Of a stretch of DNA of 64,000 nt, positions 34,092 through 56,162 are shown piece by piece. The DNA is from Candidatus Parvarchaeum acidiphilum ARMAN-4 (GTDB lineage Archaea; Nanobdellota; Nanobdellia; Parvarchaeales; Parvarchaeaceae), in contig GG730040.1 in the NCBI GenBank assembly GCA_002412065.1, positions 2,311 through 66,310 on the forward strand. The letters run 5' to 3'. The notes beneath the pieces were generated by a model. The model ran no database searches. It had not been told where the DNA came from and saw nothing but the letters and a program-made list of their open reading frames with translations. Every line of letters begins with the position of its first letter. Positions within the stretch are counted from its first letter, which is position 1. The position numbers and the translations under genes were made by a program.

Positions 34092-34775
34092 ATGTTAGAT
34101 AATCGTAAAGGTCAGTACTCTGTAGAATACACGATAATAATTGGTATTGGACTAAGCATTATTGCAGCATTTTTAATATATATCACCTTTTTTTACGGTT
34201 CTTTTTCATTGAGTTCATCAGCAAGTCAGATAAAAACTTTATCCGATACAATTGCAAATCATGTTAACTATATAGCCTCAGAAGGTCCAGGGTCTATGCA
34301 AACCTTTCCAATAACCCTTCCATTGTTGCAACAACAATATTCTTTTTTCTGTGGGGATATAATAAAATTGCAGACAACTACAGAATTGGGCGTTTCTAAA
34401 CCTGGTGAAAACGTGTCAGGGATGTTACCTTTAACGAGCGGAACATTTGATGCATTTGCACGAGCTGAAAATGGTAGTGCAATAATTGGGCTTCGTTTCT
34501 TAATTTCATATGTTCTTGGGTCTTACTCAGTTTCTTCTAATACCCTGTCTTATTCCCTTTCTTTTTATAACTACTCTGGGGATCTTAAAGGAACGGCTTT
34601 TAATATTTCATTGTTGTCTACAGGGGGGGCTTATATAACAAGTGCAAAGTCATCTACTACTTCAGGTCAGGCCTCAGGCACCCTCACATTGCCTTCTTCA
34701 GCCCCTGTTGAATATGTGCTTGAAGTTACTCCATCCGGATCGGGAGATTATTATTCTACTTGCGTAACGGGGTAA
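34092..34775 (+). CDS. archaeal type IV pilin-like protein (class III signal peptide)
   Basis: N-terminus MLDNRKG|QYSVEYTIIIGIGLSIIAAFLIY is a basic region, then a Gly at -1 and a hydrophobic helix. The mature domain is Ser/Thr-rich. Confidence 0.7.
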   Translation: MLDNRKGQYSVEYTIIIGIGLSIIAAFLIYITFFYGSFSLSSSASQIKTLSDTIANHVNYIASEGPGSMQTFPITLPLLQQQYSFFCGDIIKLQTTTELGVSKPGENVSGMLPLTSGTFDAFARAENGSAIIGLRFLISYVLGSYSVSSNTLSYSLSFYNYSGDLKGTAFNISLLSTGGAYITSAKSSTTSGQASGTLTLPSSAPVEYVLEVTPSGSGDYYSTCVTG

Positions 34776-38416: not shown

Positions 38417-40147
38417 ATGAACGTAAGAGAAATAAGTCAAATAGCAAAAAAATTTGCAGAGCCATCTACAAATGTTGGTTATCTAGAGCAATGGATAAGG
38501 GAATTAGAAGCCAGAGCCTCTAGTAGCGATTCTCATTATAGAGGAGAAATAGACTTTAGGTACGCTTCTCAGGAAGAATTACCGGATCCGGGGTTTGTTG
38601 GAAATGCAGCAGGTTATCATTTCACTAAGGATATACTAAAAAGATACCATTTTCAGCCAGAGTATTACTCTGTAATGCAGATGTTCGCAGCAATAGGTTA
38701 TAAACCACTTAGACTTGCAGAATCAGTAGATCCATCAGCTTTATCAAGCTTGATGAGTATGGCATTTGAAAAGCGAAAAAATCTAGAAGACAGGGTTATG
38801 CAGCTTTTAGGAACTATAAATACAATCTTAAAATCTCTCGTTTCCACAATTAATTCGCTTACAGAGCTTGATAGAAATCTTTATTTTTATGATGAATTAA
38901 AAGACCATGATAAAGAGAAATCGGAAGCAGCAGAATTGGCATTAAAAAGGATATTCCTTGATGTTGTTGACGCTAGAAAAGGGGGAGCAAGTCTTTCGGC
39001 ACTTTCAAGATCTCCTACACAAAGTCAGGGTGGCCCGGGTTTCATAGATATAATGTCAGTTTTCTATCAGGTAAAAAGCCTTAAGGATATTCAGCAGATT
39101 GATAGAAATGAACAGTACAAAAATATACTTAAGAACAGGTATATAGAATATGAAAAATGGAAGGAGATAAACGGAAATGAACTTCGACGCAGGAAATCGC
39201 TTTATTTAGAGTATCTTAAGAGCCAGATGGGTTCATTTAATCTATATGTGGATTGGTGTTCTAGTTATCTTTCAATTCTTTCAAAAATGGGCTGGAATAC
39301 GATTACTAAGGCAAAGGATTACTTTAATAAGGCTTCAAAGCCGGATATATTCGAAAATCAAAGCTTTTCCGTTACGGCGTTTGCATATAAATCAATTTAT
39401 GCAGGAGAGTACACAGCGGAATATGTAAAGCTGTTTAAAAGTAAAGGCCCGGAAATCCCTATACATGTAGAACCTAAAAGTCTGGCAGGCAATCTTAGCG
39501 CAAGAGGGTACGAGGAGCATAAAAGGTCCTTTATTTATGACAGGATAAAAAAATATGGGCCTCTTGTTATAGCAGGTGTAAAGCTACAGATGGATTTTAA
39601 AGAAAAACCAAGTAAGGAGCCAATACAACCGCCTTACGAAGGGACTATTTACTTTAATCTATTTCCGTATTGTTTTACTCCCGAAGAATTTTATCTTTAT
39701 AAGAAAGCTCAAATATCAAAGATACAGAAGACTGTATTCGCTTCTGTTGACCAGACCGTTTTTAATTCTTTAAGCGTCATAAAAAAGGATCTAGACAAGT
39801 ACGTTAAAGAAGCCGAGGAAGAAGAAAAAGCAAAGTCAAAGGAGAAAAAGCCGCAAAAGGATTACGCTTTCTTAGATATTTATAGGGCCTTTAAAGATGA
39901 TATCTCAGGCGTTTCAAAGTCTTTTTCAAGTATTGCTCCCTCAGAAAAGCATAAAACCAGATTTGACGAAGACCAGGCAGAGATATATGAAATGCTTGTT
40001 AATTCCAAACGTTTTGGTAGTATAAGTATTAAAAGAGCGCTTGAAATGGGTTTATTTATCTCAAATAGCGATTCAACATATATATACGATGAGCTTAAGA
40101 GAAGAGTTGGTCTGCTTAATTGGAAGGCCCCTTTTTCGGTGAATTAA
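38417..40147 (+). CDS. large hypothetical protein (576 aa), no recognisable domain. First gene of a cluster of small pilin-like genes
   Basis: Clean ORF with no P-loop, TM helix or signal peptide. Followed directly by 4 tiny membrane/pilin-like ORFs. Confidence 0.55.
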   Translation: MNVREISQIAKKFAEPSTNVGYLEQWIRELEARASSSDSHYRGEIDFRYASQEELPDPGFVGNAAGYHFTKDILKRYHFQPEYYSVMQMFAAIGYKPLRLAESVDPSALSSLMSMAFEKRKNLEDRVMQLLGTINTILKSLVSTINSLTELDRNLYFYDELKDHDKEKSEAAELALKRIFLDVVDARKGGASLSALSRSPTQSQGGPGFIDIMSVFYQVKSLKDIQQIDRNEQYKNILKNRYIEYEKWKEINGNELRRRKSLYLEYLKSQMGSFNLYVDWCSSYLSILSKMGWNTITKAKDYFNKASKPDIFENQSFSVTAFAYKSIYAGEYTAEYVKLFKSKGPEIPIHVEPKSLAGNLSARGYEEHKRSFIYDRIKKYGPLVIAGVKLQMDFKEKPSKEPIQPPYEGTIYFNLFPYCFTPEEFYLYKKAQISKIQKTVFASVDQTVFNSLSVIKKDLDKYVKEAEEEEKAKSKEKKPQKDYAFLDIYRAFKDDISGVSKSFSSIAPSEKHKTRFDEDQAEIYEMLVNSKRFGSISIKRALEMGLFISNSDSTYIYDELKRRVGLLNWKAPFSVN

Positions 40148-40149
40148 TT

Positions 40150-40323
40150 ATGAACAGCAAAGGACAAATGCCAACAACTGAGATTATAGCAATAATACTT
40201 GCCATAATAGTACTTTCAGCAGGTATTGTAATAGCAATTCTATTTAAAGGGGCTGGAGCGACAATCTCTAAGGATATGACTAATGTTTTTTCCTTCAGCT
40301 GGCTTTACGGTAAGGGCATATGA
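40150..40323 (+). CDS. small pilin-like protein (class III signal peptide)
   Basis: Starting at the internal Met: MNSKG|QMPTTEIIAIILAIIVLSAGIVIAILF. Confidence 0.5.
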   Translation: MNSKGQMPTTEIIAIILAIIVLSAGIVIAILFKGAGATISKDMTNVFSFSWLYGKGI

Positions 40324-40490
40324 GCGAAAAAGGAGTTGTAAGCGGTATTTTTCTTTATATTATATTGATAATAATCGGTATATTACTAATAATCTTTTTT
40401 CTAGAGATCTTTACACCTTACAAGTTTACAGATCTTTTTAAGGCGTTTATATCAAAGTCAAACACCTTGAATGTGAGTAATTATGATTAA
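40320..40490 (+). CDS. small pilin-like/membrane protein (56 aa)
   Basis: MSEKG|VVSGIFLYIILIIIGILLIIFFLE. The ATG overlaps the previous stop (ATGA). Absent from the ORF track because it is under 60 aa. Confidence 0.45.
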   Translation: MSEKGVVSGIFLYIILIIIGILLIIFFLEIFTPYKFTDLFKAFISKSNTLNVSNYD

Positions 40491-40632
40491 TATGAATAAA
40501 AAAGGGGTAGAAAGCTACATTTTGCTTGTTATAATAACATTAATAGTACTGATTCTAATAGTTATATTCTACCTTTTTCTTTTCTCTCCAGGTACACTGC
40601 ATAAACTCATTCCTTCGGTGCCAATTATATAA
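40483..40632 (+). CDS. small pilin-like/membrane protein (49 aa)
   Basis: MINMNKKG|VESYILLVIITLIVLILIVIFYLF. Confidence 0.45.
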   Translation: MINMNKKGVESYILLVIITLIVLILIVIFYLFLFSPGTLHKLIPSVPII

Positions 40633-40633
40633 C

Positions 40634-40795
40634 ATGGAAGCAATTTGGTTTTATGTAATTGCTATTATCCTAGGGATAACTTTAGTTATCGTTTATATCC
40701 TGTTTGTAGGGCCTTCTGCATTGTCAAAAGATATCTCCGGGTTTTTTACAAGTATAAGCTCATCGATAACATCGGGATTTAAGAACGCATATTAA
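40634..40795 (+). CDS. small membrane protein (53 aa)
   Basis: MEAIWFYVIAIILGITLVIVYILFVG is a single TM helix followed by a Ser-rich tail. Confidence 0.4.
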   Translation: MEAIWFYVIAIILGITLVIVYILFVGPSALSKDISGFFTSISSSITSGFKNAY

Positions 40796-40827: not shown

Positions 40828-41403
40828 ATGATTACTTATAGTGAATTTCTTAGAATAAGAAGACAGGAACAGGAAGACAGCAGAACTCTTACAAAGTTCA
40901 CGGATGAAATGCTAGAAGAGATGAAAGAGTACATTGCAATAAATAAAAACTCACTGGAAGAAGCAAAGAAAATGAATGATGAGAAGAAGACTGAAGAAAT
41001 ATCTACACAGATAAAAAATGCAATATCTACCCTAGAACAAATAATAAATTTAAGGTTGCTTAAAATTGCAAGCATGTCAATATTAGATGCGGATAGTGAG
41101 CAGGCAAAAGCAAACATGCTTTCAAAGGAGATAATCCTATTTGATAATCTACTTGTTTTGTCTAAAGAACATAAAGCTGGAATAATAAACGAATTAAAAT
41201 TTATAGAGCCAAAAAAGCTGCAGAAAGTAGAAAGCGAGGATAGTGATGGCGAAAAAGTGGTAATAAAAATTCTTTCGGATATACCTAAATTTGTATGGAG
41301 AAATGATAAGTCCTATGGCCCATTCAGTTTTCCAAATATAATTGAAATAGACAAGGATGTAGCACAGATATTGATAAAAAGCGGTAAAGCCGAGAGTGCA
41401 TAA
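40828..41403 (+). CDS. GINS subunit (Gins51/Gins15-like)
   Basis: Helical N-terminal A-domain, then a beta-rich C-terminal B-domain (VVIKILSDIPKFVWRNDKSYGPFSFPNIIEIDKDVAQILIKSGKAE). Confidence 0.55.
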   Translation: MITYSEFLRIRRQEQEDSRTLTKFTDEMLEEMKEYIAINKNSLEEAKKMNDEKKTEEISTQIKNAISTLEQIINLRLLKIASMSILDADSEQAKANMLSKEIILFDNLLVLSKEHKAGIINELKFIEPKKLQKVESEDSDGEKVVIKILSDIPKFVWRNDKSYGPFSFPNIIEIDKDVAQILIKSGKAESA

Positions 41404-42930
41404 ATGACATTTTTCAAGGAAGAAATAGAGAATAGAGAATACCAAACTAAAATATTTGAAACAGCAAAGACGGGTAATACACTTGTAGTGTTGCCAACCG
41501 GTCTAGGTAAAACAATAATAAGTGCAATGCTAGCAAATTATCGTTTGGAAAAGTACCCCTCATCTAAAGTGCTTTTTCTGGCCCCTACAAAACCTCTTGC
41601 AAATCAGCATTACAGAACCTTCTCTTCATTGCTTTCGCTTAAACAAGGTATGGCCAGCGGTTCCGTTTCAAGTAGTAGTAGAGGAAAAATCTATGAAGAT
41701 GCTCAGATAATATTTGCAACACCACAGACAATCGAGAATGACATGGAAAAAAAAGTTATAGATTTTTCTGATTTTAGCCTTTTAATAGTTGACGAAGCAC
41801 ATCATGCAATAGGAAATTATTCATATGTTAAAATCGCAAAATTGTACTCAGAACAGTCCTTTCATCCGCTTTTGTTGGGTCTTACTGCTTCCCCAGCATC
41901 AGATAGAGAAAAAATAAAGACAATATGTAGTAATCTTCATATAGCAAATGTTGAGATTCGCTCAGATGATGATCAGGATGTTATACCTTATATACAAAAA
42001 AAGGAAATAAACGAAATAAAAGTTGATTTACCCCCAAAATTAATTGAATTGTCTAATGATATAAAACTTCTCATTAGCGAGTCAATAAGTGAGTTACAAG
42101 AAACAGGGTTGCTAAAAAACACACAGAAAAGCAGAATAAATAAGGTGACTATTCTTTTACTTCAAAAAAGCCTTCAAAGGCAAATGTTGAGTGGTAAAAG
42201 AAATTATTATCTTATCAGAGGGATAATAATTACCTCCAAGCTTTTGAAGCTTTATCATGCTTATAACCTGCTTTCAACTCAAAGTCTTACTGCTTTTCTT
42301 AATTTTTTGGAAAAGATACAAAAAGGAAAAGCAAAGACAGATAAAGAGCTTTCATCTAATAGCAGGTTTATTGAAATAACTAAACGAACTTCTGAATTAG
42401 TAGAGCAAGGAATTGAACATCCAAAATTAAAGCAGCTTGAATCAATTTTTTCTAATTACTTCAATGAAGAGAAAAAAGCGATAATCTTTGCGCAGTATCG
42501 TGACACAGTGGATGTTATATGCAATAGTATATCAAATCTACCAGGGGTAAGGCCTATAAAATTTATAGGACAAGGTAAAGGAGGGCTATCACAAAAAGAG
42601 CAGGTAAATATAATAAAGGATTTTGAGTCGGGAGTATACAATGTTCTTGTTTCCACCAGCGTTAGTGAAGAGGGCATGTCAATAAAAGGCGTGGATATTG
42701 CAATTTTTTACGAAACCATACCTAGTGCGATAAGAAACATACAAAGAAGAGGGAGGGTTGGCAGATTTTCAGCAGGCAGTATCTTTATACTAATAACCAG
42801 AGGCACCAACGATGAAGGCTATTATTGGCTTTCTAAAAAAAGAGAAAAGACAATGAAAAATATAATAAAGAACATAAAAGAAAATCCAAACACAATAAAA
42901 CAAGATGGGACACTACACCCTTTTATTTAA
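41404..42930 (+). CDS. hef: Hef/FANCM-like superfamily 2 helicase (helicase domains only, no ERCC4 nuclease domain)
   Basis: REYQTKIFETAKTGNTLVVLPTGLGKT (Q motif and Walker A), DEAH box LIVDEAHHAIGN, SAT-like LGLTASP, and helicase C-terminal motifs QRRGRVGR. Confidence 0.8.
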   Translation: MTFFKEEIENREYQTKIFETAKTGNTLVVLPTGLGKTIISAMLANYRLEKYPSSKVLFLAPTKPLANQHYRTFSSLLSLKQGMASGSVSSSSRGKIYEDAQIIFATPQTIENDMEKKVIDFSDFSLLIVDEAHHAIGNYSYVKIAKLYSEQSFHPLLLGLTASPASDREKIKTICSNLHIANVEIRSDDDQDVIPYIQKKEINEIKVDLPPKLIELSNDIKLLISESISELQETGLLKNTQKSRINKVTILLLQKSLQRQMLSGKRNYYLIRGIIITSKLLKLYHAYNLLSTQSLTAFLNFLEKIQKGKAKTDKELSSNSRFIEITKRTSELVEQGIEHPKLKQLESIFSNYFNEEKKAIIFAQYRDTVDVICNSISNLPGVRPIKFIGQGKGGLSQKEQVNIIKDFESGVYNVLVSTSVSEEGMSIKGVDIAIFYETIPSAIRNIQRRGRVGRFSAGSIFILITRGTNDEGYYWLSKKREKTMKNIIKNIKENPNTIKQDGTLHPFI

Positions 42931-43397
42931 TTGCCAGTTATCTCAGTCTCGCAAGTTCCACCAGCAGAGTATTTTACTCCGTCTATAGAAACATTGCTAC
43001 CAGAGGTATTACCTATTATTATAGTATTAATACTTGGGTCTTTAATGGTGAAATCACCTGAGAATGAATTAATTCCTGCGGTATAATTACCTATTCTGTA
43101 TATATTAGAAGGGTTGCCATTTAAGTTACTTGCAAATACACTGTAGACTAATCCTGGGCTCCCATCTGATACAACTATCTTGAATCTATTTTGTTGAGAT
43201 GATGTGCTTATATTTGTTACATTAGCGTTGCATGGTGCAGGAGATCCGCTTCCACTATTTACTATTCCAGAGGGTAATATAGCAAAATGAAATACTGAGC
43301 TGGCTATAACTACTCCTATTATTAAAAATGAGATTAAAAGAATTATAACTATGAAATAATCAACCAAACTTGTACCTTTTAATTTGTTACTGCGCAT
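42927..43397 (-). CDS. pilin-like protein (class III signal peptide); last gene of a surface-protein operon
   Basis: From the internal Met: MRSNKLKG|TSLVDYFIVIILLISFLIIGVVIASS. The mature part is Gly/Ser/Asn-rich with a single Cys pair. Confidence 0.6.
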   Translation of the reverse strand: MRSNKLKGTSLVDYFIVIILLISFLIIGVVIASSVFHFAILPSGIVNSGSGSPAPCNANVTNISTSSQQNRFKIVVSDGSPGLVYSVFASNLNGNPSNIYRIGNYTAGINSFSGDFTIKDPSINTIIIGNTSGSNVSIDGVKYSAGGTCETEITGN

Positions 43398-44863
43398 ATA
43401 TAAACTAAATTTCTCCCCAAAAAGTTTGGTTTTGATATCCCTATCTGCTGAGGCAGGGAAGCAACGAAGTAGATTAAAGACTGTGCACATTGCTCTAATC
43501 CTGTAGCGTACAAAGCCGAATAAGCAATTTTGCCGGCATATGTAACTGCGTTAGGTGCAATATCATCCTTACATATAGAGTTATTAAAGCATTCTGCAGT
43601 TCCGAATCCTGCAAGTCCTATTCCTACTAGCAATCCAGGATTTGATGGCGCAAGAAGATCAGCGCCTATTCCCGATGCAACTGCTCTTGAACATTCATCT
43701 TCTATCCCCGAACTAGGGTAATTGTTAAGGAATGTAGCAGGTTCACATTCACTTGGCAAGCTTATTGAACTAGGAGGGAGTCTTGTGCCAGCAAGAGAAT
43801 TTAAATAGACTATGTATATCTGGGCTTTGTTGATTGATTTGCTGCTGTTCGGAAGCACAAATCCACTGCTGCTTGCGTTGCTCAAATTTTTATAGCTGAA
43901 TATAAGATTATCTCCAGGTCTTAAGTAAGTCGCATATGATTCATTTACTATAGAAGTGCTTTTTACTGGCTCAGTCAAAACACAGGAAGATGGTGCTTCA
44001 TATGAATTTGTAGTACTGTCATACCCTACAGTACAATTATTTCCATTACAGAAGTTAGTATACAGGTCTGTACAAGAATCAGTTTTACCGCTAATTGTTG
44101 AACATGTGTCCAAGGTGGTGTTAAAGGAACAGCCTTGTGATTCTTCGCATAAATCACTAGATATATTCATTGCAGCTGTAGGGGGTTTTGAACCATTTAA
44201 AGGAATATACTTTGTTGCAGTATATCCTTGTGTAAATGGCTGGTAACCAGGTTCGCTTCTACAGTTAAAATAATTAGATGACTGGGCCTCGCATATACTA
44301 GGATTGCTTAAATCACATGTAAATCCGTTTAAATTTGTGCTAGTTAAAGGATCAGAGCAGGACTGCACTGAAGTATGATTAAGGCAACTAACTTCAGTAG
44401 TATAAGCATTGCTTTCAAGATAAGTTGTAAGGTTATTTATTGTAAAGTTTTTATTTATATTTACATTAATAGCTGCACATGTTGCAGGGGAACTAGTAAG
44501 TACAGTCAAACCTTGGTTTGCACCATACTGGTTCCAACAGCTGGCTAAATCAGTTGCTACTGTTGAGAATACTTGAGATGGCTGGGCGCTAGGCCCATAA
44601 CCGGAAGTTGAAGTAGTGCATCCGAAAAGAGGAGGAGCTATTCCCAGAGCCTTAAGTGTACCACTTAAACAAAAGAATTTTGATACGCAAAGCCCGTTAT
44701 AATAAAAATTAGTGAATTCAGAACTTGCATAGCATATACCGCTGTTTGAAAGCGTTATTCCTACTATTAAAAGATAGCCGGCAATTGCTACTATTACAAC
44801 TATGAATATTACTGCTAAGATTATAAATAAAATACTCTCTCCAGGTGTTTCTGCCATAATCAA
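43379..44863 (-). CDS. large membrane-anchored Ser/Thr/Cys-rich surface protein (494 aa)
   Basis: N-terminal TM anchor (ILFIILAVIFIVVIVAIAGYLLIVGI), ~25 Cys, many N-x-S/T sequons and low-complexity Ser/Thr/Asn. Confidence 0.65.
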   Translation of the reverse strand: MIMAETPGESILFIILAVIFIVVIVAIAGYLLIVGITLSNSGICYASSEFTNFYYNGLCVSKFFCLSGTLKALGIAPPLFGCTTSTSGYGPSAQPSQVFSTVATDLASCWNQYGANQGLTVLTSSPATCAAINVNINKNFTINNLTTYLESNAYTTEVSCLNHTSVQSCSDPLTSTNLNGFTCDLSNPSICEAQSSNYFNCRSEPGYQPFTQGYTATKYIPLNGSKPPTAAMNISSDLCEESQGCSFNTTLDTCSTISGKTDSCTDLYTNFCNGNNCTVGYDSTTNSYEAPSSCVLTEPVKSTSIVNESYATYLRPGDNLIFSYKNLSNASSSGFVLPNSSKSINKAQIYIVYLNSLAGTRLPPSSISLPSECEPATFLNNYPSSGIEDECSRAVASGIGADLLAPSNPGLLVGIGLAGFGTAECFNNSICKDDIAPNAVTYAGKIAYSALYATGLEQCAQSLIYFVASLPQQIGISKPNFLGRNLVYICAVTN

Positions 44864-44920
44864 TTAGTGTTTTTATTTAATAAATTAATATCTTGTTCAA
44901 TAATTTCACTCAAATTGTTT

Positions 44921-45811
44921 TTATTGTCCGGGTATACAAACGAATACTCTGCTTTGGCTGTATATCATGTAATTGCTTAATTTGCCACATAAAGGCACAT
45001 AATAGTCACACCCACTCGTTTCATTTACTACATTTAAAGAGGGGTTGCCATTACTAAGCGAGCTTACGGTTTCCCTAGTTTGGTTTGTAGTCTCATTTGA
45101 GTATGCGCATATAGCTAAGTTGTTTATTTCAGGTTGTTGGTATCTTGCAACGTATTTGCATTGGTCTGTAAAGCTTATATCGCAGTTTTTAATTCCATTT
45201 GAAGGATAACCAAAGTAAGTTACAGTATAACTTGAGTTTGAAAGGTTATCAGAAGGATTGATATAAGCAGCGTTTCCATTGCTTCCGTTTGTTATAAACA
45301 CCATTTGGAGAGGATAATTTCCATTGTAATTACTGTCGATATCACTTATAATAGATGAATAATTTAAATTTTTACTTTGGCTGATAATTGACCCTTTGTA
45401 ACAGTTAAATATTTGGTCTAGATTACTAGCTGATAGAATTTGAGACCCTATTACAGCGTTACTACCTGAGAATAAACTAAAACAGGAAGAGGCTTCAGTA
45501 TAAAATAAAGATGCAAAATTTGTGCTACCCTGTTCGTCTATATTTGAGGACTGGAGACATTCTTTTTGTACTTGTGCGGACTGCGTTGGGCTTACTAATA
45601 TATTCGAAAGCCCAAAAAATGAAGCTGCACTAGTTAGAGGAGATAAAAACGTGTTTACTATCTTATACTGTGTAAATGCCGTAAAGCAACTTAATCCAAA
45701 GTTCAATGTCCCGAAGGAAGTAATAAGGGAAAAAGATACAACTGCAAGTACTATACCCGCCACTATAACAAGTATAACAAAAGCTATTGTTAATAGGATG
45801 CCCTCCTCCAT
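44921..45811 (-). CDS. membrane-anchored Ser/Asn-rich, Cys-containing surface protein (296 aa)
   Basis: N-terminal TM (ILLTIAFVILVIVAGIVLAVVSF), multiple Cys and N-glycosylation sequons. Confidence 0.6.
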   Translation of the reverse strand: MEEGILLTIAFVILVIVAGIVLAVVSFSLITSFGTLNFGLSCFTAFTQYKIVNTFLSPLTSAASFFGLSNILVSPTQSAQVQKECLQSSNIDEQGSTNFASLFYTEASSCFSLFSGSNAVIGSQILSASNLDQIFNCYKGSIISQSKNLNYSSIISDIDSNYNGNYPLQMVFITNGSNGNAAYINPSDNLSNSSYTVTYFGYPSNGIKNCDISFTDQCKYVARYQQPEINNLAICAYSNETTNQTRETVSSLSNGNPSLNVVNETSGCDYYVPLCGKLSNYMIYSQSRVFVCIPGQ

Positions 45812-45972
45812 TACGAGCCACCGCCCAGCAGATTTCCAAAATATGCAAATGGAGAACTACTATGAGAACTTGCATAAAATAGGATTATCACTAGTCCTAT
45901 GATAGCTACAGCTGTTATTATAACTAGAATCAACCATATAATCCTCCATTCTACGCTTCCTTTATTATTCAT
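45811..45972 (-). CDS. micro membrane protein (53 aa) with class III-like N-terminus
   Basis: MNNKG|SVEWRIIWLILVIITAVAIIGLVIILFY. Its stop overlaps the next ATG (TAATG). Tightly packed between 45974..46483 and 44921..45811. Confidence 0.4.
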   Translation of the reverse strand: MNNKGSVEWRIIWLILVIITAVAIIGLVIILFYASSHSSSPFAYFGNLLGGGS

Positions 45973-45973
45973 A

Positions 45974-46483
45974 TTACTGTCCTATGCATGCTGCACAATA
46001 AGGCCCGTCCCCAGATATGCATGCAGGCACATTTATTGCACAGTTTTGTATGTCTGTTGCGTTGTTTGCTACTATCGTACTCTCAGAACAACTAAATAAA
46101 TCGGCCGTATTAGTTGGAGATACAACACTACATGCGCTTGTTATATTTGCAGGAGGGCTGGCCATGCACGATTCTACTAAAGAGGTGTTCCCTTGTCCAT
46201 TAACCCAATAATCATAATAACACCAATGTCGGATACAGGTCTGCACTGCTGTAGCCGCGTTGAAACATGCATTTTCATCATAGCAACGAAAAAGTGCTGT
46301 ACCCTCCATCCTATTTGGATATCCATATTCTGCGCTTGTGAACTGGTTCTGTAGTAAAGCGGTGGAAGTATCGCATCCTACTGGGAAAATAGAGGAATAA
46401 TTATTGTAAAACAGAAAGAACATAGTAAGTGCTATAACTATCCCGATAATGACTTCAAAGAATAGAAACTGTTCAACATCCAT
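45974..46483 (-). CDS. membrane-anchored cysteine-rich protein (169 aa, ~18 Cys)
   Basis: N-terminal TM (FFEVIIGIVIALTMFFLFY), then a Cys-dense domain (CYDENACFNAATAVQTCIRHWCYYDYW...CAACIGQ). Confidence 0.6.
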   Translation of the reverse strand: MDVEQFLFFEVIIGIVIALTMFFLFYNNYSSIFPVGCDTSTALLQNQFTSAEYGYPNRMEGTALFRCYDENACFNAATAVQTCIRHWCYYDYWVNGQGNTSLVESCMASPPANITSACSVVSPTNTADLFSCSESTIVANNATDIQNCAINVPACISGDGPYCAACIGQ

Positions 46484-46554
46484 TTCATTCTTAGAAGGTG
46501 TTAATTTAAATTGTTTTTACATTCCCAGTCTTTAATTAATAACGGCTTTAAAAA

Positions 46555-46962
46555 TTACAATCTTTCCTTATCCGCCATTATTATCTCAAACCATTTATTT
46601 TTACCGTCTTCTATAAGAAAATACGATCCAATGACTTGCATATTTTTGTAAACTTTCAAAGCTCTGTTTCTTGCGATTTTTTCCTTGCTAATTTCTAATT
46701 TATAATATAATCCACTTTTACTTGGTCTTCTAGCATGGTTAGGTCTTGGTCTTCTAAAATCCCCCTTGCTCACTCTAACTCTTACAACTATATAACCCTG
46801 TTTGGCCTTGTATCCTACCGTTTTGGCCTTTGCTATCTTTGTAGGTCTTTCTATTCTTTGTGTTATAGGCTGATTTCTTACTGCCTGTAAGATTTCTTTT
46901 TTTCTATTATCGTTTTTGTATAATGCCATCTCATTAGCATGTATATATTTATATGATCCCAT
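46555..46962 (-). CDS. rpl15e: ribosomal protein eL15 (L15e), C-terminally short (135 aa)
   Basis: MGSYKYIHANEMALYKN...VGYKAKQGYIVVRVRVSKGDFRRPRPNHARRPSKSG...WFEII aligns with the L15e core (MGAYKYI...GYKAKQGYVIYRIRVRRG...). Confidence 0.8.
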   Translation of the reverse strand: MGSYKYIHANEMALYKNDNRKKEILQAVRNQPITQRIERPTKIAKAKTVGYKAKQGYIVVRVRVSKGDFRRPRPNHARRPSKSGLYYKLEISKEKIARNRALKVYKNMQVIGSYFLIEDGKNKWFEIIMADKERL

Positions 46963-47006
46963 AAGGGATAAATTAAAATCTGTAAGTATAAATATCTAAC
47001 GTTATC

Positions 47007-47444
47007 TCAATTGATTATATTTCCGTTTGATGCTATGACTGGAGAGTATGAAATATTAGTTGGGGTATAATATATATAGCCGTTTCCACTGAAAGAACTT
47101 CCTAATGAGACCGAAGTTAAATTGCATTCTGTAGACTCTAAAGCAGGAAGATATGTTTTTGAGCATACAAAGTTGGTGTAATTTACTCCGGATATTATCA
47201 TTGATATCCCATCTATTTTTATATTCTCATTTAACAGGTTTTGGAATTCAATATAAAATGTAGATTTTGAAGGGATATAACCCTGCTGCAATACACGGAA
47301 ACCGGAGAATCCTGAATAACTTGGAGTTGATGTAGTCCCTGTCAGAGACGGGAAAAAAGTAAATATTATGTAAAAGATTGATGCTATTACTATTATAGCT
47401 ATCCCATACATTAGCACCATCTCAAGTGATTCCTGTGCTCTCAT
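47007..47444 (-). CDS. pilin-like protein (class III-type signal peptide)
   Basis: MRA|QESLEMVLMYGIAIIVIASIFYIIFTFF followed by a Ser/Thr/Asn/Tyr-rich beta-type domain. Confidence 0.55.
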   Translation of the reverse strand: MRAQESLEMVLMYGIAIIVIASIFYIIFTFFPSLTGTTSTPSYSGFSGFRVLQQGYIPSKSTFYIEFQNLLNENIKIDGISMIISGVNYTNFVCSKTYLPALESTECNLTSVSLGSSFSGNGYIYYTPTNISYSPVIASNGNIIN

Positions 47445-47519
47445 ACTTGTTTTATTGGTTTTTAAAATATAAGTATGTCTCTTTGATTATTAGAAAGATA
47501 TTTTAGTCACTTTAGATTA

Positions 47520-47590
47520 GCCTTGGGTGGGTTTCGAACCCACAACCTCCTGCTTACGAAGCAGACGCTCTGCCATTGAGCTACCAAGGC
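47520..47590 (-). tRNA. tRNA-Thr (anticodon CGT)
   Basis: Minus strand GCCUUGG-U-A-GCUC-AAUGGCA-GAGC-G-UCUGC-UUCGUAA-GCAGG-AGGUU-GUGGG-UUCGAAA-CCCAC-CCAAGGC. Canonical cloverleaf and T-loop. Confidence 0.9.
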
Positions 47591-47721: not shown

Positions 47722-47907
47722 TTAAGTCGTGAATGTTTTAAATTCCGCTTGCTTTTTGTTGATGTCTTTTTTATAAGTTTCATTGCTTACTGTATGGTTT
47801 TTAACCGTGAATGTCCTCCCGCAATAGAAGCATTTTACTTCTTTTAAAGCAGAAGTTTTTCTGTATTTACCGCATTTAGGGCACTTAACAATCCTGTAAA
47901 CAGTCAT
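47722..47907 (-). CDS. small zinc-ribbon protein (61 aa)
   Basis: CPKC...CFYC in a basic protein. Translationally coupled to the upstream minD-like gene (ATGA overlap). Confidence 0.5.
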   Translation of the reverse strand: MTVYRIVKCPKCGKYRKTSALKEVKCFYCGRTFTVKNHTVSNETYKKDINKKQAEFKTFTT

Positions 47908-48623
47908 ATTTTTATTAATTGCTTTGCTAGATTAGTTATATCCTTAGCAGCAAAGCTTTTTGGAGAAGACAAAACTAAAGGAACACCTATTTTTAATGCA
48001 TTATACACCTTTTTGTCATCCCTAATCCTCCATACGTTTTTTATTTCCATAAGGTCCTTTGTTTCTTTTTCTGTCATTTGATCTTTTATTCTGTTATTTA
48101 CTTTGTTTATTACAAGTCCAATTATATTGATATTTGCGTTTTCTAGTTCTTCTTTTAGTTTTTTAGCTTCTATTATAGAGGTTATATCCGGATTAGACAC
48201 TATAAGACTGCTGGCATTTTTGATTAGTTTTATAAAATTTATCTCATAAGACGGTCTTGAGTCTATTATTATGAAATCATATCTATCTTCAATCTTTTCA
48301 ATGTAACGGTTTATGTTTATTAGTTTGTTTGGCAGTCTGCTCTCTTCGGTTCTTGTTACCCTTGAAGGTAAAATGTGGAATTTGGGGTTATCTCCCATGT
48401 ATATGGCATTTTCAATTTCGGTTCTACCGTTCAATACATCTTCTAATGAGTACTTAAACCCAACAAAGCCATAATAAATCGCGACATGTGGAGTTTCTAG
48501 GTTTGCGTCTATAAGTAAGGCACTTTTATTTAATTCAGAAATAGCTGTAGCTAAGTTCACAGATGTAGTTGTTTTTCCTACACCGCCTTTTGGGCTCATC
48601 ACTACTATAATCTTAGCCGACAT
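47904..48623 (-). CDS. minD: MinD/ParA-family P-loop ATPase
   Basis: Deviant Walker A IVVMSPKGGVGKTTTSVNLA. Walker B-like FIIIDSRP. Confidence 0.85.
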   Translation of the reverse strand: MSAKIIVVMSPKGGVGKTTTSVNLATAISELNKSALLIDANLETPHVAIYYGFVGFKYSLEDVLNGRTEIENAIYMGDNPKFHILPSRVTRTEESRLPNKLININRYIEKIEDRYDFIIIDSRPSYEINFIKLIKNASSLIVSNPDITSIIEAKKLKEELENANINIIGLVINKVNNRIKDQMTEKETKDLMEIKNVWRIRDDKKVYNALKIGVPLVLSSPKSFAAKDITNLAKQLIKI

Positions 48624-49180: not shown

Positions 49181-49445
49181 CTTTATAATACCTTTTATTT
49201 ACTGTGTTACCCCAACTAAAATTTCCAATTTCATTTTTATTCTCAACTGTCACCTTTCCCTCCTTTAATGCAAGGTACAAATAATGGTAGACAAGCCTGC
49301 TTGAAATTTTTCTCCCTGTTTTTTTGAGCGTTTTATATATCTCATAACCGGTTTTGTTGCCATTTGATAGCTCGGCTAATATTGCTTCCATAAGCTCTTT
49401 GTCTATTTTTCTTACCATTTTAGCTACATTGTGGCATCGATTCAT
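49173..49445 (-). CDS. small winged-helix transcriptional regulator (PadR/ArsR-like)
   Basis: LMEAILAELSNGNKTGYEIYKTLKKTGRKISSRLVYHYLYLALKEGKV is a typical recognition helix and wing. Confidence 0.5.
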   Translation of the reverse strand: MNRCHNVAKMVRKIDKELMEAILAELSNGNKTGYEIYKTLKKTGRKISSRLVYHYLYLALKEGKVTVENKNEIGNFSWGNTVNKRYYKAK

Positions 49446-49926
49446 TTATAGAAAGGCATATGTACTTTAATATATCATTATAAGCAGTTTGATTGTTTGC
49501 GAATCCGCCAACCTTATAGTACTTTCCATTAAATATGATCATCGGAACGCGGTTTATCCCTACCTGATTAAATATTGAAACTGCTGAATCTGGCAAGTTA
49601 TCAGTTGTATTGCTATTGTATGCAGATATATTAAATTTCCAAGCACAAAAATACCCACTGTAAAATGTATTGTTTCCCCATAAACCAAAAAGGGAAGTTA
49701 CATTTTGAAATGAATTCACAGTATCTGTGCAAGTTCTGCAATTATCAGCATAATAAATAATTAATGAAGGCTCATTCTGTGAGCATAGCCCTGACATGTT
49801 TAAGTTAGTTTCATGAAATGAATAAAAGTTGTTTAATGAATAAGTTTGGTAATAAAAGAATATCGCTATTATTAAAAGCACAACGATTATAACAGTATAC
49901 AAATAATATCTAAATCTAGTTAGCAT
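49420..49926 (-). CDS. membrane-anchored thioredoxin-fold protein with CxxC (extracytoplasmic thiol-disulfide oxidoreductase candidate)
   Basis: N-terminal TM (YLYTVIIVVLLIIAIFFYY), then LIIYYADNCRTCTD (CxxC) and RVPMIIFNGKYY (thioredoxin-fold cis-Pro region). Several N-x-S/T sequons. Confidence 0.6.
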   Translation of the reverse strand: MLTRFRYYLYTVIIVVLLIIAIFFYYQTYSLNNFYSFHETNLNMSGLCSQNEPSLIIYYADNCRTCTDTVNSFQNVTSLFGLWGNNTFYSGYFCAWKFNISAYNSNTTDNLPDSAVSIFNQVGINRVPMIIFNGKYYKVGGFANNQTAYNDILKYICLSINESMPQCS

Positions 49927-50215
49927 AAAATGAAATGTTTAATTTTTCTATTTCGTTTTGGCTGCAGCTGTTTCCTTTATTGACTATGCATATGTTAGTG
50001 TAATTGCCTAAATCCTTATAGACATAACTGTAGGCGGGGGATGAAAAATAAGAAGGATCAACTATAAGATTGAATATTTTTGAATAGCTACAGGAAGTTG
50101 CATTTATAAGTCTATAAACTTGAAATTGAAAAGGGCTGTATATCCCAGTTTCATTGTTATAATTGAAGATATGCCCGTTTCCCTTAAAAACAATGTTTAT
50201 AGTCATCTGTTTCAT
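49916..50215 (-). CDS. hypothetical small protein (99 aa), Cys- and N-sequon-containing
   Basis: ORF in the operon with flanking secreted proteins. No TM. Confidence 0.3.
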   Translation of the reverse strand: MKQMTINIVFKGNGHIFNYNNETGIYSPFQFQVYRLINATSCSYSKIFNLIVDPSYFSSPAYSYVYKDLGNYTNICIVNKGNSCSQNEIEKLNISFYAN

Positions 50216-50240
50216 TTTTAATAAGGAGTTTATTATATCA

Positions 50241-50811
50241 CTATAATTTGTGCTCCCTTTTGAATAAATTTAAGTCATATTTCAGTGGATTAACGATCGA
50301 ATAATTCTGTAATCCAGATGCGGCTATCTCAGAATAATATGCCTTCATCTGTGAATAAGTGATATTAAAAAGTTGTATTATCTCAGTAGAGTTAAGTTTA
50401 TTATCTATAAATTGGTAAAGCTGGCTTTCTGCAGCAGTGCAGTTTGTGTAATTTTCAACACTGCACATTGATACAAGAGAGATATCTCTTAATATATCGC
50501 TGTATTCTTTTTGTACTTCTGACGAATTTATGGGTATTGTCGGAGCAAGAGGTTCCATTTCATAAGTACACTCATTAAACGATTGAGTTGTTTGATAATC
50601 CCCCATAGAAATAGTATAAGTCTTTGTCCGATAGCATACTTAAATTTATATTGTAACTGGAAATAAAATCCCCAAGTTTTATGCTGTTTGAGAGATTTTG
50701 AGGCTTGTTTATAAAAGTCGGCTTAAAGGGGTAAACATACAATATTGCAGTAAAAGCTGCAAGTAATATAACCAATACAATTAGTACTTTTATTACGCCA
50801 TTACTTTCCAT
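50241..50811 (-). CDS. membrane-anchored small secreted protein, probably one gene split at a G5 run (50581-50585) into ORFs 50575..50811 and 50241..50606
   Basis: The upstream ORF gives a TM anchor (VIKVLIVLVILLAAFTAILYVY) ending ...YYFYGGLSNNSIV*. Removing one G fuses it to YQTTQSFNECTYEMEP..., a 4-Cys N-sequon-rich domain. Confidence 0.4.
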
Positions 50812-51598
50812 CAGCTAATTTTTCGCTTATTTTCTTTGCGGTTTCTTCTGGTGAATAATTTATTCTGTTTATTCCTAGAATATCAATAGGATCAATATTT
50901 CCAGACATAACTTCTATCTCAAAGTGTTCTGCTCCTGACTGTTTTATACAAAAAGTTATGTCCTTTTTGATTTTTTTAGTTATTTTAATCAAAAAGTTTG
51001 CTATATCAAACGCCAAAACATTATCTATTTCCTCTGCAGGAGTGTGTTTTATAGTCGTTATCCTGAGAAGCTCGTTCTTTTTCGGTGAAAATGGAGTATA
51101 AGCTATTAATTTCTCTGTTTTGTATACTTCTCTGTTGCCAGTATAGTTTAAGCTTTCACATACATGGCATTTTTCGGTATTATGCATTGGTACCGGCAAA
51201 ACAACTAAATCCCAGTAATCATGACCATTAACATACCTGCTTACAGAGATGTTCTTCCCTAAGTCGTAATTTTTCAATTCGTTAAGTCTCTCGCTTATTA
51301 TTATCAAAAGTTTCTCTATATCATCAGCAGAATAGCTTAAAAAGTTTGAAGAATGCTTTTCATTTTCTACAATTAATTCTTCGTATCCGTGTGCATTGGA
51401 GTGTTTAAAAAATGTTCCTTCCAACTGGTATTTAGAAGGCTGTACTCTATCTTTCACTTCATATATCTTTATATATCCTCCTTTAAACTCTATTGATTTT
51501 ATGCTATTTTTTAGCGGCATACATTCCCTGCAGCCAGCTTTTTCATTGCTTAGCAGGTCAAATGTCAGATCTACTGGGTCTAACCTAAACTCTTCCAT
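50801..51598 (-). CDS. hypothetical protein, possible GalT/HIT-like nucleotidyltransferase fold
   Basis: Cys pairs GCRECMP and CHVCES, and a His-containing FKHSNAHGYEELIVENEKH. The match is weak. Confidence 0.25.
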   Translation of the reverse strand: MEEFRLDPVDLTFDLLSNEKAGCRECMPLKNSIKSIEFKGGYIKIYEVKDRVQPSKYQLEGTFFKHSNAHGYEELIVENEKHSSNFLSYSADDIEKLLIIISERLNELKNYDLGKNISVSRYVNGHDYWDLVVLPVPMHNTEKCHVCESLNYTGNREVYKTEKLIAYTPFSPKKNELLRITTIKHTPAEEIDNVLAFDIANFLIKITKKIKKDITFCIKQSGAEHFEIEVMSGNIDPIDILGINRINYSPEETAKKISEKLADGK

Positions 51599-54964: not shown

Positions 54965-55618
54965 ATGAAAGGCCAGTTTTCATTTGAATTCATGATAGAT
55001 GTTGCATTTGTTTTAGTTCTAATAGCCTTCATAGCAGTTTTCTTTGCGCATATCTCCGCTGGAAATCCAACGGTTTCAGATATGAATGGGATTTGTTATG
55101 AGATGGCCGATTCAATAAATTCCATGGCAAACTCCAATGGTTTTCAAACTATACAGTACTTGCCGTTACTTACATTTACAAAACAGGAGAATTACACAAT
55201 AAACGTTTCAAATGGAATAATAATAATATATGAAAAGTCACTTTATGGAGGAAAATTACTTGCAGGGCAGGATTTAACTTCATGCGGTGCAGATACTGCG
55301 CTCACAGAAAATGAATCATTTGGTTTATCAAATCTTGTTTTGTATACAAACCAAACAAACATTGCATTGGCCTATGCTTATGCCAATTACTCCGGCAACC
55401 TCCCAAATTACATCTTTGTAGGCGGATTTACAGGTGCGGTTAATTTGTCATTGGACTATTCAAATGGTACTATCACTACATTAGATGTTCAGAATTCGCC
55501 ATTTACATACTTTGCAGATACAAAATCTATTCCATTACCGGCTGGTGTTTATAATTTTGTAGCAACTAGCGTGGCCTCTCCTGACATTTACGTCGATTTG
55601 CCTTTTTCAGTCGGTTAA
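54965..55618 (+). CDS. archaeal type IV pilin-like protein (class III signal peptide)
   Basis: MKG|QFSFEFMIDVAFVLVLIAFIAVFFAHI. The mature domain is Asn/Thr/Tyr-rich. Confidence 0.7.
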   Translation: MKGQFSFEFMIDVAFVLVLIAFIAVFFAHISAGNPTVSDMNGICYEMADSINSMANSNGFQTIQYLPLLTFTKQENYTINVSNGIIIIYEKSLYGGKLLAGQDLTSCGADTALTENESFGLSNLVLYTNQTNIALAYAYANYSGNLPNYIFVGGFTGAVNLSLDYSNGTITTLDVQNSPFTYFADTKSIPLPAGVYNFVATSVASPDIYVDLPFSVG

Positions 55619-55685: not shown

Positions 55686-56162
55686 ATGGCAAAAGGACAG
55701 TCAGCATTAGAATACATGATGACTTATGGTTGGGCAATACTAATCATAGTTATCGTAGCTGTAATCTTGTATTCTATGGGAATTTTCAACCCTAGAGCAA
55801 GTGTAACTGCAACAAGTAGTGGGTTCAGCCCATTCGCAGCAAGTGCAGCAGTCTGCAGTAGCAGTAGTAGTAAATTAACAGTAGCTTTTACTGTTGGTGG
55901 ACTACCTAACGGAGCTTCTTCTGCAACCATAACTGGAGCAAGTTACTCGTCTGGAAGTGGAATTAGTCCGGCTATTAACTCTGGCACAGCAAGCCCAACG
56001 GTGGTGTCTTCTGGTAGCAGCTTTAATGTAACCTTCAGCACTGTAACATGTACACCAGGGGTTGGATTTAGTGCTTCTGGTGTAGTGAACTACTCCGTTA
56101 CAACAGCAGCAGGTACTGCAACTTACTCTGCAACAGGAACAATAGCAGGAACAGGCAGCTAA
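55686..56162 (+). CDS. archaeal type IV pilin-like protein (class III signal peptide), Ser/Thr/Ala/Gly-rich
   Basis: MAKG|QSALEYMMTYGWAILIIVIVAVILYS, then a low-complexity S/T/A/G domain. Confidence 0.7.
   Translation: MAKGQSALEYMMTYGWAILIIVIVAVILYSMGIFNPRASVTATSSGFSPFAASAAVCSSSSSKLTVAFTVGGLPNGASSATITGASYSSGSGISPAINSGTASPTVVSSGSSFNVTFSTVTCTPGVGFSASGVVNYSVTTAAGTATYSATGTIAGTGS

Follow-up and report, generated by a model that had tools for sequence, protein, structure and literature searches.

A conserved cysteine-rich gene core in a candidate type IV pilus-like locus of Candidatus Parvarchaeum acidiphilum ARMAN-4

What kind of system is encoded where cysteine-rich, membrane-anchored proteins lie among pilin-like genes, with a ribosomal protein gene in their midst? 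The question is raised by a locus of Candidatus Parvarchaeum acidiphilum ARMAN-4, an acid-mine-drainage archaeon of the DPANN group, in which seven co-directional open reading frames (ORFs) occupy positions 42927–47444 of the minus strand of a 64-kb window (the whole stretch of DNA analysed, to which all coordinates refer). An initial annotation had read these ORFs, all present in the ORF list, as an operon for a surface adhesion or fibre, and the reading as a surface-fibre, pilin-type locus gained support: distant homologues of its 169-, 296- and 494-residue proteins and of one neighbouring micro-gene lie directly downstream of an assembly ATPase and a TadC-like platform protein in other DPANN contigs. 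The cluster is assigned here, with a probability of roughly 65%, as the structural genes of the one type IV pilus-like system of ARMAN-4, the motor genes being separated from it and a four-gene core forming an accessory or minor-subunit module. From its upstream end, the cluster consists of the following features (arrows mark predicted cleavage points).

47007–47444, minus strand: 145-residue pilin-like protein with a predicted class III signal (MRA↓QESLEM and a 20-residue hydrophobic helix)
46986–46996, minus strand: TATA-like box GATATTTATAC, 24–34 nucleotides (nt) upstream of the eL15 start codon
46555–46962, minus strand: ribosomal protein eL15, 135 residues, C-terminally short (PF00827)
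45974–46483, minus strand: 169-residue protein with an N-terminal anchor and 12 conserved Cys, encoded by the gene that opens the conserved four-gene core
45811–45972, minus strand: 53-residue micro-pilin-like protein (MNNKG↓SVEW and a hydrophobic helix)
44921–45811, minus strand: 296-residue N-terminally anchored protein with 10 invariant Cys (family alignment)
43379–44857, minus strand: 492-residue N-terminally anchored protein (494 residues from a TTG start, and called the 494-residue protein throughout) with 24 invariant Cys, a member of a DPANN family
42927–43397, minus strand: 156-residue pilin-like protein (MRSNKLKG↓TSLVDY and a hydrophobic helix)

Two contig families without taxonomic assignment (L004/L005 and L006/L007; L numbers designate fetched loci) connect these genes to a pilus-type motor. 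In L004, a T2SSE ATPase (PF00437, 757–762 residues) is followed by a 671-residue polytopic TadC-like protein, a 156-residue Cys-rich anchored protein, a 52-residue transmembrane micro-ORF, a ~316-residue anchored protein, a 469-residue homologue of the 494-residue protein and a 52-residue micro-protein. The order in L006/L007 is a TadC-like protein, proteins of 137, 40, 327, 535, 52 and 62 residues, and then pilins starting MKAQG↓LP. Relatives of the polytopic protein gave weak T2SSF (PF00482) matches, one of these relatives carrying the annotation ‘Flp pilus assembly protein TadB’. Profile hidden Markov models (HMMs) built solely from Parvarchaeum sequences and searched against the fetched loci recovered the corresponding genes in place. 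In L004 (E 2.5e-15) and L006 (E 8e-8), the 169 HMM picked out the gene that immediately follows the TadC-like gene; the 296 HMM matched its positional equivalent in L004 (E 1.6e-5) and, after one iteration, in L006. The 494 HMM matched L004 (E 1e-39), L006 (E 6e-27), the Nanobdellati contig L011 (E 4.7e-8) and L009 (E 7.8e-5), the last two matches also lying downstream of an ATPase–TadC pair. Among the four micro-genes on the opposite strand of the ARMAN-4 locus (m1–m4, listed below), the m1 HMM recovered the micro-gene immediately behind the 494-family gene, both in L004 (E 4.7e-8) and in the Woesearchaeota locus L064 (E 1.8e-7), and the m4 HMM matched L006_5109 (E 3e-7). The position of the 53-residue gene is taken in L004 and L006 by a transmembrane micro-ORF of 40–52 residues, with no significant similarity to the 53-residue protein. 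Judged by their shared order in L004 and L006, the 169-, 53-, 296- and 494-residue genes constitute a conserved four-gene core.

When iterated, the 494 profile gave near full-length matches (~300 residues) in 18 DPANN ATPase loci, and it also matched L006_2396, the 296-like gene (E 4e-21). The 296- and 494-residue proteins are probably distant paralogues; a direct hhalign comparison of the two families was negative (16% probability). For the 296 family, the homology claims come only from the HMM searches of fetched loci, hhalign against the L004/L006 positional equivalents giving a probability of 14%. Iteration of the m1 profile grew to 83 matches that were judged unreliable (short hydrophobic peptides), and the non-iterated matches are used here. 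In distant 494-family proteins the N-terminus is a canonical class III signal (MKLNKKG↓E, MSKKG↓L), and the L011 locus carries a separate 1092-residue Cys-rich protein starting MHLSRKG↓I. The ancestry of the 296- and 494-residue proteins thus appears pilin-like, since distant relatives carry KKG↓, though the ARMAN-4 proteins themselves fail the motif.

Exactly one N-terminal hydrophobic segment is present in each of the six non-ribosomal proteins of the cluster. The class III-type [KR]-[GA] cleavage site holds for the 145-, 53- and 156-residue proteins and does not extend to the 169-, 296- and 494-residue proteins. The R-A↓Q-x-S-L-E motif of the 145-residue protein and the NKKG↓SVEWRI of the 53-residue protein are kept in the relatives L001 and L002, and the site of the 156-residue protein (KLKG↓TSLVDY, with a basic residue at −2 and a hydrophobic helix following) is likewise kept in its orthologues. 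The acidic +5 and aromatic +6 residues of the latter resemble those of Flp pilins and archaeal QxSxEF/Y pilins. In UniRef the 145-residue protein is named ‘Archaeal Type IV pilin N-terminal domain-containing protein’, and it is weakly similar to a class III protein encoded at 55686–56162 (E 2e-4). That protein is one of three in the window with more canonical class III-type N-termini, all encoded on the plus strand (34092–34775, MLDNRKG↓QYSVEY; 54965–55618, MKG↓QFSFEF; 55686–56162, MAKG↓QSALEY); the first gave a sub-threshold match to the Pfam Class_IIIsignal model (E 0.03). With these three further genes, pilin-like genes are scattered across the 64 kb.

A second, convergent group of genes and the upstream neighbours of the cluster comprise the following features.

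47904–48623, minus strand: MinD/FlhG-like P-loop ATPase, 239 residues (Pfam AAA_31, CbiA, ParA)
47519–47590, minus strand: tRNA-Thr (CGU) (ARAGORN and Rfam)
40634–40795, plus strand: micro-protein gene m4 (m1–m4 encode 49–57 residues)
40483–40632, plus strand: micro-protein gene m3
40320–40490, plus strand: micro-protein gene m2
40150–40323, plus strand: micro-protein gene m1
38417–40147, plus strand: 576-residue soluble protein, directly upstream of the micro-protein genes

In ARMAN-4 the locus thereby takes the form of two clusters that converge on the GINS and Hef genes lying between them (40828–42930). Three of the micro-proteins have sites of the same type (m1, SKG↓Q; m2, EKG↓V; m3, KKG↓V), kept in orthologues, and the micro-genes at 40150–40795 are pilin-like and part of the same system. 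In Parvarchaeum (also in L001, L002 and L090) the gene for the 576-residue protein always immediately precedes the micro-protein genes, and the protein had no Pfam, NCBIfam or PDB relatives. It is not related to the T2SSE ATPase, and the possibility that it is an assembly ATPase gone degenerate was rejected, hhalign giving 0.1% and neither a Walker motif nor a PDB match being seen; from position only, it may be guessed to be an accessory component of the system.

Are these genes functional? The whole neighbourhood is syntenic in three relatives, of which L001 and L002 carry a 494-residue orthologue ~47–48% identical to that of ARMAN-4, and L090 one that is 81% identical. The shared order runs through SecF, SecD, four unannotated genes and MinD to the 145, eL15, 169, 53, 296, 494 and 156 genes, and in all three the cluster converges on Hef, GINS, the four micro-genes and a gene for ~580 residues. 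The 494 and 296 families are confined to Parvarchaeota-like archaea (27 and 28 clusters, respectively, among 5.8 billion; 26 matches among 1.8 billion representatives in a profile search with the 494 family), and protein lengths are constant within both. Between ARMAN-4 and L090, the nonsynonymous substitution rate (dN) was ~0.08–0.16 for every cluster gene. Its ratio to the synonymous rate (dN/dS) was 0.08 for the 145-residue gene, 0.03 for the 169, 0.07 for the 53, 0.10 for the 494 and 0.09 for the 156, and 0.05–0.08 for m1 and m2; these ratios are rough, as dS is saturated, and undefined for the 296-residue gene (dN = 0.11, in the same range as the others), m3, Hef and the 576-residue gene. 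The housekeeping neighbours eL15, GINS and MinD have similar dN and dN/dS. Because its dN/dS is 0.07, even the 53-residue ORF is taken as a real gene. The cluster genes are functional and under purifying selection as strong as that on their housekeeping neighbours, unlike fast-evolving surface antigens.

Conservation of this kind bears on whether the locus is the decaying remnant of a pilus system that has lost its motor and whose genes no longer function. The missing ATPase and TadC genes and the lost basic signal residue of the 296- and 494-residue proteins could be seen in this light, as could a frameshifted neighbour at 49919–50814. By the conservation data, however, a relic is strongly disfavoured and very improbable: the frames of the six genes are intact, lengths are constant down to ~47% identity (494-residue orthologue) with Cys invariant, dN/dS is at most 0.1 wherever computable, and a single copy each of the ATPase, TadC and FlaK is reportedly retained in ARMAN-4. 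The frameshifted neighbour (49919–50814, minus strand) is the orthologue of an intact 303-residue N-terminally anchored, sequon-rich protein of L090 (2777–3688), and was matched by tblastn at 60–70% identity in the three frames −3, −1 and −2, over which it is split; it is either a pseudogene or the product of two assembly frameshift errors.

The three larger core proteins are set apart by composition. Cysteine makes up 3.4–7.1% of the 169-, 296- and 494-residue proteins compared to 0.37% of the long ORFs in the window (10–19 times background), and charged residues 8–10% compared to 23.5%. The label ‘low-complexity’ given earlier to the two largest is misleading, with 24/24 Cys (494 residues) and 10/10 Cys (296 residues) invariant to 43–47% identity. 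In the 169-residue protein, 12 Cys are present in 3/3 orthologues, and the 18 Cys first attributed to it are a miscount of 12. The N-x-S/T sequons, described as dense, showed no excess over an Asn/Ser/Thr-rich composition in a shuffle test (0.13–0.45 of shuffles reached the observed number); several are nonetheless invariant in the 494- and 296-family alignments.

Composition of this sort is typical of acid-exposed exoproteins, and the three proteins might be general envelope glycoproteins (wall or S-layer-like), held by an uncleaved helix and independent of a motor, whose proximity to pilin-like genes, and to ATPase/TadC genes in other lineages, is simply co-location of exported genes within compact genomes. 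An essential envelope component would fit their housekeeping-like rate and dN/dS and their lack of a canonical prepilin cleavage site, as well as the SecD/SecF genes and a thioredoxin-like anchored protein nearby and the non-adjacency of ATPase/TadC genes in Parvarchaeum. It would not explain the four-gene order directly after ATPase–TadC in L004 and L006 or the L006/L011 relatives with KKG↓ signals, flanked by micro-pilins and MKxQG↓LP pilins, and no S-layer domain was found in the Pfam, NCBIfam and PDB profile searches. This explanation is considered unlikely, and a pilus-like system is preferred.

The thioredoxin-like neighbour is a 168-residue N-terminally anchored protein (49420–49926, minus strand) that is conserved in L090 and has the motif YYADNCRTC and later NRVP(M/L)IIFNG. 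By eye these resemble the CxxC and cis-Pro loop of thioredoxin-fold oxidoreductases; there was no Pfam match. The protein could be an extracytoplasmic disulfide catalyst for the Cys-rich exported proteins encoded nearby.

Pfam and NCBIfam scans of the seven proteins and their neighbours matched only eL15, GINS, Hef and MinD. AlphaFold2 models of the 494 family (21 sequences; mean predicted local distance difference test score [pLDDT] 58, predicted template modelling score 0.42) and of the 296 family (20 sequences; pLDDT 43) were too poor to interpret, and sequence-profile searches of the PDB with both families gave no match at E up to 10. No homology to S-layer, adhesin or other characterised surface families was detected in Pfam, NCBIfam or the PDB profiles, the type of homology named in the initial annotation as contrary to its reading.

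Where, then, is the motor? The initial annotation had noted that the immediate surroundings lack assembly machinery, and indeed the entire 64-kb window contains neither a T2SSE ATPase nor a TadC-like platform, nor any candidate for a polytopic peptidase. Table S6 of Rao et al. 2023 credits ARMAN-4 with a single arCOG01818 ATPase, a single arCOG01812 TadC, one FlaK (K07991) and one arCOG00589 FlhG/MinD, and with no recognised pilin (no arCOG02420 or arCOG03871). A profile scan of genome contigs (at least 580 Woese-, Nano- and Pacearchaeota matches, 80 of them listed) did not locate the ARMAN-4 ATPase, and no Parvarchaeum sequence was among the matches when the L004 platform protein served as query in a protein search. 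Separation of this kind has precedent, as the ATPase/TadC module often evolves and lies apart from the pilin set in archaeal type IV pilus loci (Makarova et al. 2016, a survey that did not cover ARMAN/DPANN).

The FlhG of Rao et al. would correspond to the MinD-like gene at 47904–48623, and arCOG00589 FleN/MinD is the commonest regulator at archaeal type IV pilus loci (Makarova et al. 2016). Lying upstream on the same strand, the MinD/FlhG-like ATPase is probably a regulatory partner of the pilus system. The tRNA-Thr gene stands between the MinD and zinc-ribbon genes and the first pilin-like gene, and so separates the upstream genes from the cluster. The 61-residue zinc-ribbon protein (two CxxC pairs; 47722–47907, minus strand) has a 4-nt overlap with the stop of the MinD-like gene and sits just upstream of the tRNA-Thr and the first pilin-like gene. 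In L090, two extra minus-strand genes (127 and 169 residues; L090 5874–7185) lie between MinD and the 145-residue pilin-like gene, where ARMAN-4 has only the zinc-ribbon gene and tRNA-Thr.

A further, rather improbable alternative is that, in place of an adhesive pilus, the locus serves a type IV filament-like machine peculiar to DPANN archaea, used to contact a host or to transfer material (a pseudopilus/secretion system or cell bridge). At least 580 GTDB species representatives encode the ~757-residue ATPase, which has a long N-terminal extension, and among the 80 listed nearly all are Woese-, Nano- or Pacearchaeota or ‘uncultured Methanosarcinales’, with one Armatimonadota. Its ~680-residue TadC-like partner accompanies it in at least 580 DPANN species representatives, and members of the 494 family recur downstream of the pair. 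Pili have been tied to DPANN–host contact in the published literature, which also describes pili-like connections between ARMAN and Thermoplasmatales cells. A conserved, Gly-rich and moderately hydrophobic segment at residues ~400–420 of the 494 family has counterparts in L004 and L006, and the 494-family protein might, for instance through this segment, engage the host membrane; the segment is, however, below the transmembrane threshold (Kyte-Doolittle 1.29). That the four-gene module and micro-pilins are the working end of a DPANN-wide ATPase/TadC host-membrane apparatus (for bridging, transfer or feeding) is accordingly a speculative idea, and rather improbable; were it true, the housekeeping-like constraint on the Parvarchaeum module would reflect the symbiont's dependence on its host-contact apparatus for survival.

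A Hef-type helicase was also observed within the 8–9-kb flanks of a DPANN-type T2SSE ATPase in 14 of the non-Parvarchaeum loci examined (among L009 and L010–L089). In ARMAN-4, Hef and GINS lie between the pilin-like clusters, and the neighbourhood looks old.

How the cluster is transcribed bears on the place of eL15 within it. The tight packing noted initially is correct (gaps of 44, 71 and 1 nt, a 1-nt overlap, then 57 nt, or 63 nt before the 494-residue gene if its ATG start is taken). A single seven-gene operon is not supported, since TATA-like boxes occur ~25–33 nt upstream of the starts of the 145, eL15, 169 and 494 genes. The eL15 box, for which a promoter role is suggested, is at the same distance in L001 (GATATTTATAC) and L002 (AGTTATTTATAC). 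With this conserved box ahead of it and a T5 run after its stop codon, eL15 is most likely its own transcription unit, outside the fibre system. The 53, 296 and 156 genes abut or overlap the gene preceding them: the stop codon of the 53-residue gene overlaps the start of the 296 (TAATG), and the 156-residue gene overlaps the 494 by 19 nt (coordinates with the annotated start at 43397). The simplest reading would be four predicted transcription units (145; eL15; 169–53–296; 494–156), with translational coupling likely only in the last two.

Gene models were adjusted in two cases. The cluster corresponds to BJBARM4_0144–0150, with 6/7 ORFs annotated in GenBank (EEZ93217 and EEZ93219–EEZ93223), and an exact-sequence look-up with the 494-residue ORF from its TTG start returned no match. 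That ORF is present at the length first given, and its likeliest start is the ATG at 44857, giving 492 residues as in all homologues. The last gene, previously taken as 187 residues, is annotated as 156 residues (MRSNKLKG...).

The second gene was correctly recognised as eL15 (Pfam PF00827, 115 bits against a cutoff of 27). The match covers only profile positions 3–137 of 191, the NCBIfam score of 135.7 bits is below the equivalog cutoff of 178, and the short form (134–137 residues) is kept across Parvarchaeota. Compared with solved archaeal eL15 (189–196 residues; one chain of 169 residues), ~55 C-terminal residues are absent. The oddity of an embedded ribosomal gene dissolves on comparison, as L004 and L006 have ATPase and platform genes where eL15 sits. 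With its position upstream of the 169-like gene taken by ATPase and platform elsewhere, the presence of eL15 in the surface cluster is best explained as a by-product of compact-genome rearrangement, with no functional link.

Several points weigh against a pilus-like assignment. None of the Pfam/NCBIfam pilin models matched a cluster protein, the 145- and 156-residue proteins having no match even at E up to 5. A basic −2 residue is a known requirement of archaeal prepilin peptidases. The 169-residue protein (MDVEQF...) has no Gly or [KR]-G cleavage site at its N-terminus, and the 296-residue (MEEG↓I...) and 494-residue (MAETPG↓E...) proteins have no basic −2; lacking this residue, the three may remain membrane-anchored in Parvarchaeum. 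The full four-gene core is ATPase-linked in only the two contig families without assigned taxonomy, and the link to Woesearchaeota-type loci is partly carried by an iterated profile, which is prone to drift. The presence of the ATPase, TadC and FlaK in ARMAN-4 is as reported in the published table. Evolution as slow as that of housekeeping genes is, moreover, unusual for pilins and adhesins.

From the homology, synteny, motifs and selection described, we infer how processing, filament assembly, filament position and adhesion might proceed in a pilus-like system of this composition. The 145-, 53- and 156-residue proteins and three of the four opposite-strand micro-proteins would be prepilin-like, inserting an N-terminal helix into the membrane, where a FlaK-type prepilin peptidase would trim them after [KR]-[GA] and an ATPase/TadC motor encoded elsewhere in the genome would extract them into a filament. 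The 169-, 53-, 296- and 494-residue core would act as an accessory or minor-subunit module of this machine. Its 296- and 494-residue members, presumably descended from proteins bearing class III signals, would most likely sit either at the filament tip or at its base, forming an adhesin/anchor or priming complex. Together with the 169-residue protein, they would have lost the basic −2 residue in Parvarchaeum and may stay anchored in the membrane. Their ectodomains are predicted to be disulfide-locked, low in charge and probably N-glycosylated, suited to ~pH 1. The eL15 gene, in contrast, would be a housekeeping gene unrelated to this machine and read from a promoter of its own.

Most likely, then, this is a type IV pilus-like locus of the archaeal/DPANN ‘dark matter’ sort, in a form specific to its lineage. 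Among the archaeal type IV pilus loci of Makarova, Koonin and Albers (2016), the nearest are the complex systems of Methanococci and Thermococci, with several minor pilins, FleN/MinD and two extra membrane proteins. Shared with such loci are the small class III-type proteins, the adjacent MinD/FlhG ATPase, the reported FlaK-type peptidase, and a pilin set apart from the ATPase/TadC module, commonly so according to the same survey. Unlike them, ARMAN-4 has no protein in a recognised pilin arCOG or Pfam family, a core of 169-, 296- and 492-residue Cys-rich anchored proteins, and micro-proteins of only 49–57 residues. The DPANN ‘dark matter’ type IV pilus islands of Makarova, Wolf and Koonin (2019, Fig. 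2A) consist of an ATPase and TadC followed by unannotated signal-peptide proteins, which those authors read as divergent pilins, and L004, L006, L008, L009 and L011 are of the same kind. The ARMAN-4 locus differs in having no ATPase/TadC signature genes, so that it would escape that approach, in the intervening eL15 gene and in its division between two convergent clusters around GINS and Hef.

Bacterial Tad/Flp pili offer further likenesses in their very short, almost helix-only pilins with Gly at −1 and, in some subunits, acidic +5/aromatic +6 residues (TSLVDY in the 156-residue protein) and in the TadB/C-like platform of the homologous loci. The ParA/MinD-type ATPase of the ARMAN-4 locus is comparable to TadZ. 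Unlike Tad/Flp, the ARMAN-4 system has no outer-membrane secretin or TadD/RcpA-type component, its reported peptidase is of the archaeal FlaK type instead of TadV, and its large Cys-rich subunits have no Tad counterpart. By functional analogy only, the joint encoding of several small pilin-like proteins and one or two much larger ones resembles that of minor-pilin tip complexes (GspK of the type II secretion system; the PilY1/PilC adhesins of type IV pili), to which no sequence or fold similarity was detected.

The locus supplies a candidate pilin set for Parvarchaeum, reported absent by the published census: together with the convergent micro-protein cluster and the three other class III genes, it provides the missing candidate subunits. 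Also new are a conserved Cys-rich four-gene core tied to a widespread DPANN ATPase/TadC pair, and an unusually strong constraint on Parvarchaeum pilus-like genes. As the ARMAN/Parvarchaeota are ultrasmall and host-dependent, the locus bears on how they attach to partners, and the Cys-rich core and pilin-like set are concrete targets for the study of host contact by proteomics, cryo-electron tomography labelling and structure work.

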